Shown here one piece after another: positions 36,627-36,809 of a stretch of DNA of 64,000 nt; positions within the stretch are counted from its first letter, which is position 1, and the number at the start of each line of letters is the position of its first letter. The notes beneath the pieces were generated by a model, which saw only the letters and a list, made by a program, of their open reading frames with translations, ran no database searches and was not told the origin of the DNA. Source of the DNA: Magallana gigas (taxonomy: Eukaryota); NCBI RefSeq assembly GCF_963853765.1, contig NC_088853.1, positions 63,674,001 through 63,738,000 on the forward strand. Direction: 5' to 3'. The position numbers were made by a program, and so were the translations under genes.

Positions 36627-36809
36627 TCAAGTTCTCTGTTGTTTGATATAGGTCCATAACAATTTTCTCAATTTACACATAGTTCTTACACGGTCTACGG
36701 CCACGAACATCCACGGACTCCTCCGGTCTTCGGGAGGTAAAACATATATTTGATCCTGTGCAGTATCAAAAGTCACTCGTTTTCCTTTTTTGAGACTTAA
36801 TAACTTCAT
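36627..36809 (-). CDS. GADD34/ICP34.5/DP71L-like PP1-targeting protein (possibly frameshifted at the C-terminus)
   Basis: KRVTF (RVxF) followed by EDRRSPWMFVAVDRVR, matching the PPP1R15 pattern R-x-G-P-W-x3-A-x-D-R-x-R-F. The terminal Phe is absent. Confidence 0.65.
   Translation of the reverse strand: MKLLSLKKGKRVTFDTAQDQIYVLPPEDRRSPWMFVAVDRVRTMCKLRKLLWTYIKQQRT

Follow-up and report, generated by a model that had tools for sequence, protein, structure and literature searches.

A selected PPP1R15/DP71L-like accessory gene in Polintons of Magallana gigas, with a likely non-functional copy at the end of a decayed element

The window, by which we mean the whole stretch of 64,000 nucleotides from Magallana gigas analysed here (RefSeq assembly GCF_963853765.1, contig NC_088853.1, positions 63,674,001 to 63,738,000), contains a decayed Polinton between 12.6 and 37 kb, with a short phosphatase-adaptor-like gene at its right end (Table 1). 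The gene order of this Polinton is the same as that of intact relatives, to which it is up to about 80–85% identical, and the Polinton gene set (PolB, integrase, packaging ATPase, capsids and protease) is present, the ATPase and the integrase being recognised by Pfam. The leftmost gene piece we take to be DNA polymerase B from its position and motifs, the split gene is presumably the major capsid gene, the protease label is partly our assumption beside weak Pfam support and conserved gene order, and the repeat beyond the truncation is presumably helitron/Helentron-like. No terminal repeat pair was seen for the truncated copy in the window. The sequence-only reading of this DNA had placed the adaptor in a Polinton, and this location is borne out by the gene set around the motif and by sister genes that lie near capsids, some of them within full elements.

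The transposon in the presumed capsid gene (8.4 kb, 23498–31901) has inverted ends of at least 300 nt that are 100% complementary, and it carries a PHD finger, pieces of a PIF1 helicase and, on the opposite strand, a TNP-like transposase. Compared with the sister elements L028–L030 and L037–L039 the arms of the Polinton are swapped, since the window has PolB on the left and X/adaptor on the right, whereas L028 and L037 have the X-adaptor cassette ahead of the ATPase and PolB reversed at the far end. Beyond the Polinton, at 38600–39400 on the plus strand, lie spliced-looking pieces, read by eye, of what we take to be a tyrosine recombinase of the Crypton-like type.

Table 1. Features of the decayed Polinton and its surroundings, in window coordinates
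Feature	Position	Strand	Basis or remark
Presumed protein-primed DNA polymerase B, C-terminal piece	12669..13244	+	position and motifs; no Pfam PolB match
A32-like packaging ATPase	13250..13954	+	PF04665 E 4.5e-6, over cut-off
Retrovirus-like integrase with chromodomain	18874..19830	+	PF00665 E 1e-11, PF00385 E 1e-8
Presumed major capsid gene, split by 8.4-kb transposon	23253..33071	+	conserved gene order
Presumed adenovirus-like cysteine protease	33115..33423	+	PF00770 E 0.096 (weak Pfam support)
Histone 3' stem-loop (Rfam RF00032) and purine-rich downstream box	35820..35866	-	36.1 bits, cut-off 34; about 30 nt after stop of Pro-rich ORF
Pro/Ala-rich ORFs downstream of adaptor	35893..36262	-	where intact relatives have a Pro-rich RING-tipped gene
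Polinton accessory gene: PPP1R15/DP71L-like core with natural C-terminal tail	36627..36782	-	RVxF, EDRR, W, A, D-R-x-R, then T for F; tail common to sister copies
eIF2alpha/actin-side motif region	36681..36731	-	R and W retained; S at G position, T at F position
KRVTF, predicted PP1-docking RVxF motif	36768..36782	-	V in 173/186, F in 175/187 relatives
Gene X, 3' remnant, about residues 86–160 of the 163-aa relative P0012	36780..37004	-	all-helical, no recognised family; 5' half and promoter absent; other copies extend past 36993
Small indel	36786..36788		sets window copy apart from sister copies; puts motif into gene X frame
ATG that starts an 82-aa ORF in twin L002 and P0272	36868..36870	-	in the window its frame closes after 34 codons at 36766
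Unrelated repeat beyond truncation, internal units of about 170–180 nt	37063..38130		ends approximate

The motif series read earlier on the minus strand was confirmed at 36782–36681: within the frame 36627–37001, KRVTF (36782–36768) is followed by EDRR (36731–36720), PW (36716–36711) and DRVRT (36695–36681), and the frame ends with a stop at 36629–36627. The EDRR..PW stretch pairs with EDRKGPW of PPP1R15B, and both the Arg for the PP1 arginine pocket and the Trp (human R578 and W582) are present. Taken alone, the window ORF reaches E 0.035 and 14.2 bits against the Pfam model PP1c_bdg (PF10488), which has a curated cut-off of 26.1, and E 0.03–0.13 against PPP1R15B chains. On profile A4, which was made from 12 other Polinton cores with the host gene and the window subfamily left out, the ORF scores 35.7 bits and the best of the other 1114 window peptides 5.7, while the 60-aa peptide scores 37.0 and its 2000 shuffles at most 8.2. 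Searched against PDB sequences, the same profile finds DP71L at E 1.2e-13, PPP1R15B at 2e-11 and PPP1R15A at 1.2e-6, and all eight of its matches at E≤1 belong to the PPP1R15/DP71L family, with none outside it. Because the A4 score lies far above those of the window peptides and the shuffles, and because A4 finds DP71L and PPP1R15, the homology of the window motif to the PPP1R15/DP71L core can be regarded as secure at the sequence level, as had been claimed for it. The PP1c_bdg model, which had been proposed as a check, gives a divided answer: the window ORF alone stays under the cut-off, but 17 other non-host places pass it, and the window is linked to these by its A4 score.

The search for further copies covered the 564-Mb M. 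gigas assembly (G000, with C1 as the window's chromosome). The window frame gave 27 of 27 scored matches at E≤1 and PF10488 gave 37 of 41, with 18 over the cut-off, one of which is the host gene and 17 of which are non-host. Both searches pooled, and L005/L008 merged, there are at least 54 distinct non-host adaptor places, 42 of which lie within 20 kb of a Polinton capsid match; even placement would give about 3% near a capsid on C1, on which both sets cluster. Conversely, an adaptor is found near 38 of the 73 capsid places (one duplicate row removed) and near 15 of the 18 in the capsid group closest to the window. The remaining 12 of the 54 adaptor places have no capsid match within 20 kb, and some of them adjoin other Polinton genes, namely an integrase at L003 and a homologue of window ORF 20253 at L053 and L064. 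C1 holds 53 of the 73 capsid places and 37 of the 54 adaptor places.

In the L037–L039 element the adaptor gene is enclosed by 148-nt AGTAGT...ACTACT inverted repeats and a 6-bp target duplication; in all, terminal inverted repeats were found in four of the six relative regions examined and a clear target duplication in one. Ends of the AGTAGT type with a 6-bp target duplication are described for Mavericks in the available text of PMC8097293. The adaptor occurs across Polinton groups with capsids that are only about 30–35% identical, and two of nine metagenome contigs with the adaptor (L080 and L081) also have capsid and protease genes. Among 1.84 billion representative proteins, 1556 matched at E≤0.001, and the best 150 of these are mostly short and, where looked up, nearly all unnamed. 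A scan of IMG/VR gave 13 pattern matches, none of which was confirmed, and in the ESM Atlas the third match of the public protein P0272 is a PP1c_bdg cluster at 0.86, which we treat as a lead only. The PPP1R15-core profile also matches the N-terminus of the livupivirus A1 (picornavirus) polyprotein (P0175/P0302, residues 19–74) at E 2.4e-12.

Upstream of the adaptor lies gene X, which in its intact form is a helical protein of 140–170 aa with no recognised family, and whose named relatives are all Magallana gigas proteins. A stretch that we took to be BH1-like had suggested Bcl-2, a tentative candidate for which no support came from Pfam, VIA, a PDB sequence search, the ESM Atlas or Foldseek run on the PDB and on viral libraries. 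The structure model of gene X has a pLDDT of 76.8; Foldseek gives no match to it at E≤0.001, and in VIA generic helical bundles score best, with a Z of 7.5.

In three intact sister lineages the adaptor ORF begins at X codon 17–18 and runs without a stop across 152, 121 and 127 codons of X, for which a codon-usage model expects 9.0, 7.3 and 7.1 stops. As this model overcounts on six control genes (108 stops seen, 153 expected), about 5–6 expected stops are fairer, which corresponds to roughly p<0.01 per lineage, the lineages not being independent. In each of the three, X terminates at the RVxF codons or immediately ahead of them, so ribosomes must start on the adaptor within X, for which leaky scanning or a separate start site is the probable route; judged by its reading frames, the adaptor of the intact sister lineages overprints gene X. 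In L081 the adaptor overlaps another gene, a homologue of window ORF 20253. In L028 a six-codon upstream ORF (5621–5641) overlaps the start of X ahead of the adaptor ATG at 5691 and loosely resembles the uORF control of ATF4/GADD34, with no conservation seen in other lineages. A divergent triple zinc-knuckle (CCHC) gene lies upstream of X in L028 (4832–5392, minus strand) and L037 (4736–5311, minus strand), and one run has some RNA reads with a strand bias over it.

Four RNA runs, about 1% of each of which was read, were aligned to the intact sister copy L028, where 38–129 reads per run fell on 4.6 kb. Over X and the adaptor the depth leans to the expected sense strand in 4/4 runs, a TATA-like box lies about 50 nt before X, and four reads in one run have an A-tail behind 6505, after AATAAA at 6479–6484, although a genomic A-run at this site makes internal priming possible. 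One run shows the opposite, antisense strand over the ATPase of L028. The reads are 90–99% identical to L028 and may therefore stem from any copy. Low-level RNA matching an intact sister subfamily is seen.

Downstream of the adaptor, no alignment was found between the Pro/Ala-rich ORFs of the window and the Pro-rich RING-tipped gene that holds their position in intact relatives. The histone-type stem-loop behind them recurs at the equivalent place in L028 (7999–8043), L037 (8296–8341), L032, L035 and L079; it is over the RF00032 cut-off of 34 in three of the 11 loci scanned (36.1, 39.8 and 43.2 bits), an AAAAGAT box follows it in 7/7 of the loci listed, and L079 has a paired change in the stem. 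Compared by hand, 17 of 23 exact genome matches to the window hairpin lie within 20 kb of a Polinton gene match. These observations suggest that Polintons may have borrowed histone-type, S-phase mRNA processing. No report of a histone stem-loop in Polintons was found in the literature searched.

Viral mimics of GADD34 are well known. In this family the RVxF motif and the conserved Arg bind PP1, and the Trp, Phe and Ile help to recruit G-actin; DP71L consists of these motifs only, yet suppresses the stress response, and Phe and Ile mutants need more actin in vitro, though they are near normal in cells (available text of PMC10743859, PMC5346070, PMC4394352, PMC10807198 and bioRxiv 10.1101/2025.02.28.640897). 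By analogy, intact Polinton copies quite probably act like DP71L. RVxF and the conserved Arg would dock host PP1, the W-D-R helix would engage G-actin and phospho-eIF2alpha, and the recruited PP1 would counter a shut-off of the PERK/GCN2 type during bulk synthesis of capsid and polymerase. In the oyster, PERK is induced by poly(I:C), according to the part of PMC9680061 that was available. As the gene is related to proteins that restart translation after stress, intact copies likely help the element to overcome the host shut-off.

The window copy belongs to a subfamily that departs from this pattern. The final Phe was noted as missing in the sequence-only reading, and Thr does stand in its place, but this is an inherited subfamily trait rather than a sign of decay: F occurs in 195/201 relatives and T in two, both from the window subfamily (the relative set is redundant), and F>T and I>L are found in every window-subfamily copy that retains the site. 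Ile itself is present in 184/201 relatives, and S stands for G in 67/202. In the sister Polinton subfamilies F, R and I are retained in 12/12 A4 cores, and the RF-type sisters have the complete motif except for G>S in some. The published consensus Rx[Gnl]x1-2Wxxx[Arlv]x[Dn][Rg]xRFxx[Rlvk][Ivc] (Rojas 2015, as quoted in the available text of PMC5346070) is missed at three positions (S for G, T for F and L for I), and the subfamily is therefore filed as a diverged homologue. Its Thr, at a position where Phe is nearly invariant, and its shorter tail lead us to predict an actin-dependent adaptor weaker than those of the sister subfamilies.

An alternative is that the subfamily still docks PP1 and has lost the eIF2alpha/actin specificity, so that it would retarget or sequester PP1 and raise phospho-eIF2alpha. 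The uniform F>T and I>L changes, the retention of RVxF, EDR, W and D under constraint and the very long branch of the subfamily in the tree are all consistent with this, as are mutants of DP71L in the distal LSAVL motif that bind PP1 and lose activity, one of which raised phospho-eIF2alpha (PMC5346070, available text). However, in mouse PPP1R15A it is R571A and W575A that cripple the protein, and the equivalent single mutants F585A and I589A are near wild type in cells (PMC4394352, in the text available); the window copy retains the critical R and W, and no new motif was seen in it. Retargeting is accordingly unlikely, and the RT subfamily is probably a weaker version of the adaptor.

The suspected frameshift in the tail of the window copy has to be given up, since a stop, not K, precedes IEKIVMDLY in the other frame, and the in-frame tail after RT recurs in L002, L005/L008, L006 (72% identical) and the public proteins P0272, P0075 and P0081; L003 is the only copy in this genome that runs from RT into the VMDL frame. 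The damage lies elsewhere. Gene X ends near 37000, at about residue 86 of 163, before the unrelated repeat, so that its start and promoter are gone. The indel near 36787 is missing from L002, a 98.5% identical twin in which the motif is in frame with the ATG (82 aa), and the sister form at this site is seen in contigs from two other runs and in both RNA reads that cross it. The earlier observation of an open frame upstream without a start codon holds as far as it goes, as 192 nt are open before Met 36809 with no second Met there; however, the frame and this Met belong to gene X, of which Met 36809 is a conserved internal residue, and it was rejected as the adaptor start. Breaks in X or the adaptor were found in all seven window-subfamily copies seen here.

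L002 lies at G000:C1:53.31 Mb and is 98.5% identical to window 35258–38276, truncation and flanking repeat included, which places the duplication after the decay of the element.

It could be argued that the window copy is functional all the same, making a 60-aa peptide from Met 36809 under a new promoter, possibly to the benefit of the host, as the core is unbroken from this Met to the stop, an ATTAAA follows the stop, and the short DP71L has only about 71 aa. This is very unlikely: the native promoter and the 5' part of gene X are lost, the Met is internal to X, and the two RNA reads across the indel show the sister form. Run X21 has seven reads for the subfamily, each of them oriented in the way that is usually antisense, and X24 has one partial read; no RNA run was listed for the window stretch itself. 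With a truncation and a frameshift upstream of its motif, the copy is unlikely to yield a normal protein, and the view that it is itself a working stress-response antagonist is not supported. The cut in X near 37000, the indel near 36787 and the interrupted capsid gene indicate that it is likely dead, and it is probably silent.

Compared across copies, the adaptor core is under purifying selection. Between subfamilies the dN/dS values of the core are 0.09/1.21, 0.15/1.14, 0.19/1.60 and 0.25/1.55, several distant pairs being saturated, and in the RT lineage dN is 0.20 and dS 0.66 (Fisher p=0.023, 36 codons); very close pairs are without an excess of synonymous change (L069/L070, 0.08/0.07). The host PPP1R15 gene (L048) includes a long acidic exon, and an intron interrupts it within RK|VHF, where the Polinton copies are continuous. 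On 52 alignment columns, in a tree in which 3/28 branches are well supported and the 'cellular-like' labels are inferred from length and composition, grouping the Polinton copies with the host gene as one clade is rejected (p-AU 0.013), and the data neither reject nor establish that the Polinton copies arose once (p-AU 0.37). The weak single-sequence scores (Pfam E 0.035; PPP1R15B E 0.03–0.13) might be read as a match by chance or as a passive piece of host PPP1R15 captured recently, but either is highly improbable given the A4 score far above its controls, the selection on the core, the missing host intron and the rejected clade. The favoured reading, to which we give a probability of about 80%, is that the copy in the window, truncated, frameshifted and likely without function, derives from a Polinton gene with a PPP1R15/DP71L core, intact copies of which likely recruit PP1 to dephosphorylate eIF2alpha and thereby sustain translation during expression of the element.

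A wider interpretation is that Polintons carry a host-control cassette like true viruses. It would combine a stress-response antagonist, translated from within a gene that it overlaps and possibly through leaky scanning that stress enhances, as in host GADD34, with a gene closed by an SLBP/U7 signal of the histone type, the product of which would therefore be made only in S phase, the window lineage being a diverged antagonist with altered substrate or cofactor use. We regard this combination as tentative and rather doubtful.

Among known proteins, the ASFV DP71L short form (PDB 9NB9) is the best PDB match of the Polinton profile, and it is also closest in architecture, rather than ICP34.5 or GADD34: it is a core-only protein of about 70 aa with stand-alone RVxF and eIF2/actin motifs, and the Polinton forms of 70–80 aa are alike. 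Unlike DP71L, the Polinton adaptor rides an integrating germ-line element and in one Polinton group overprints an upstream gene, and the window subfamily differs further in its T for F, S for G and shorter distal helix. PPP1R15A/GADD34, PPP1R15B/CReP and the host gene L048 have a homologous C-terminal core, but the Polinton adaptor is without their long acidic N-terminal region and without an intron in RVxF; the residue after Trp is Met in 12/12 A4 cores and in the window, and Glu or Gln in the host gene and most of the long cellular-like rows. HSV-1 ICP34.5, TGEV protein 7 and PPP1R15A-like genes of baculoviruses, as described in the available parts of their literature, would follow the same strategy, with the difference that an RARA motif is not seen in the window ORF.

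With animal Polintons/Mavericks (adintoviruses), as far as the accessible text of the published accounts describes them, the elements have in common PolB, ATPase, integrase, capsids, protease, accessory regions at the ends and, in the case of L037–L039, AGTAGT termini and a 6-bp duplication. The accessory genes named in that text are of the Oncoid, Bcl2, IAP, PLA2X and gasderminX types, and a phosphatase adaptor is not among them. A search of mostly open-access literature, including the available text of Starrett 2021, Barreat 2021 and a 2026 preprint, found no report of a Polinton GADD34 or phosphatase adaptor, which agrees with the initial judgement that the gene is outside the standard Polinton set; the gene-map figures of Starrett et al. 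and Table II (391 proteins) of the Reineke preprint may include such proteins. The adaptor is hence best described as a real Polinton accessory gene under selection, apparently unreported, which belongs to a familiar functional kind and whose class of carrier is new.

To conclude, the window copy itself is ordinary debris, and it is the gene to which it belongs that bears on the question of whether animal Polintons are live viruses or capsid-retaining transposons. A selected DP71L-like gene beside about half of the genome's capsid genes is what would be expected of elements that make bulk protein against an eIF2alpha defence. In addition, the Polinton copies add many natural minimal PPP1R15 cores, one of them without the actin-contact Phe, for structure-function work.
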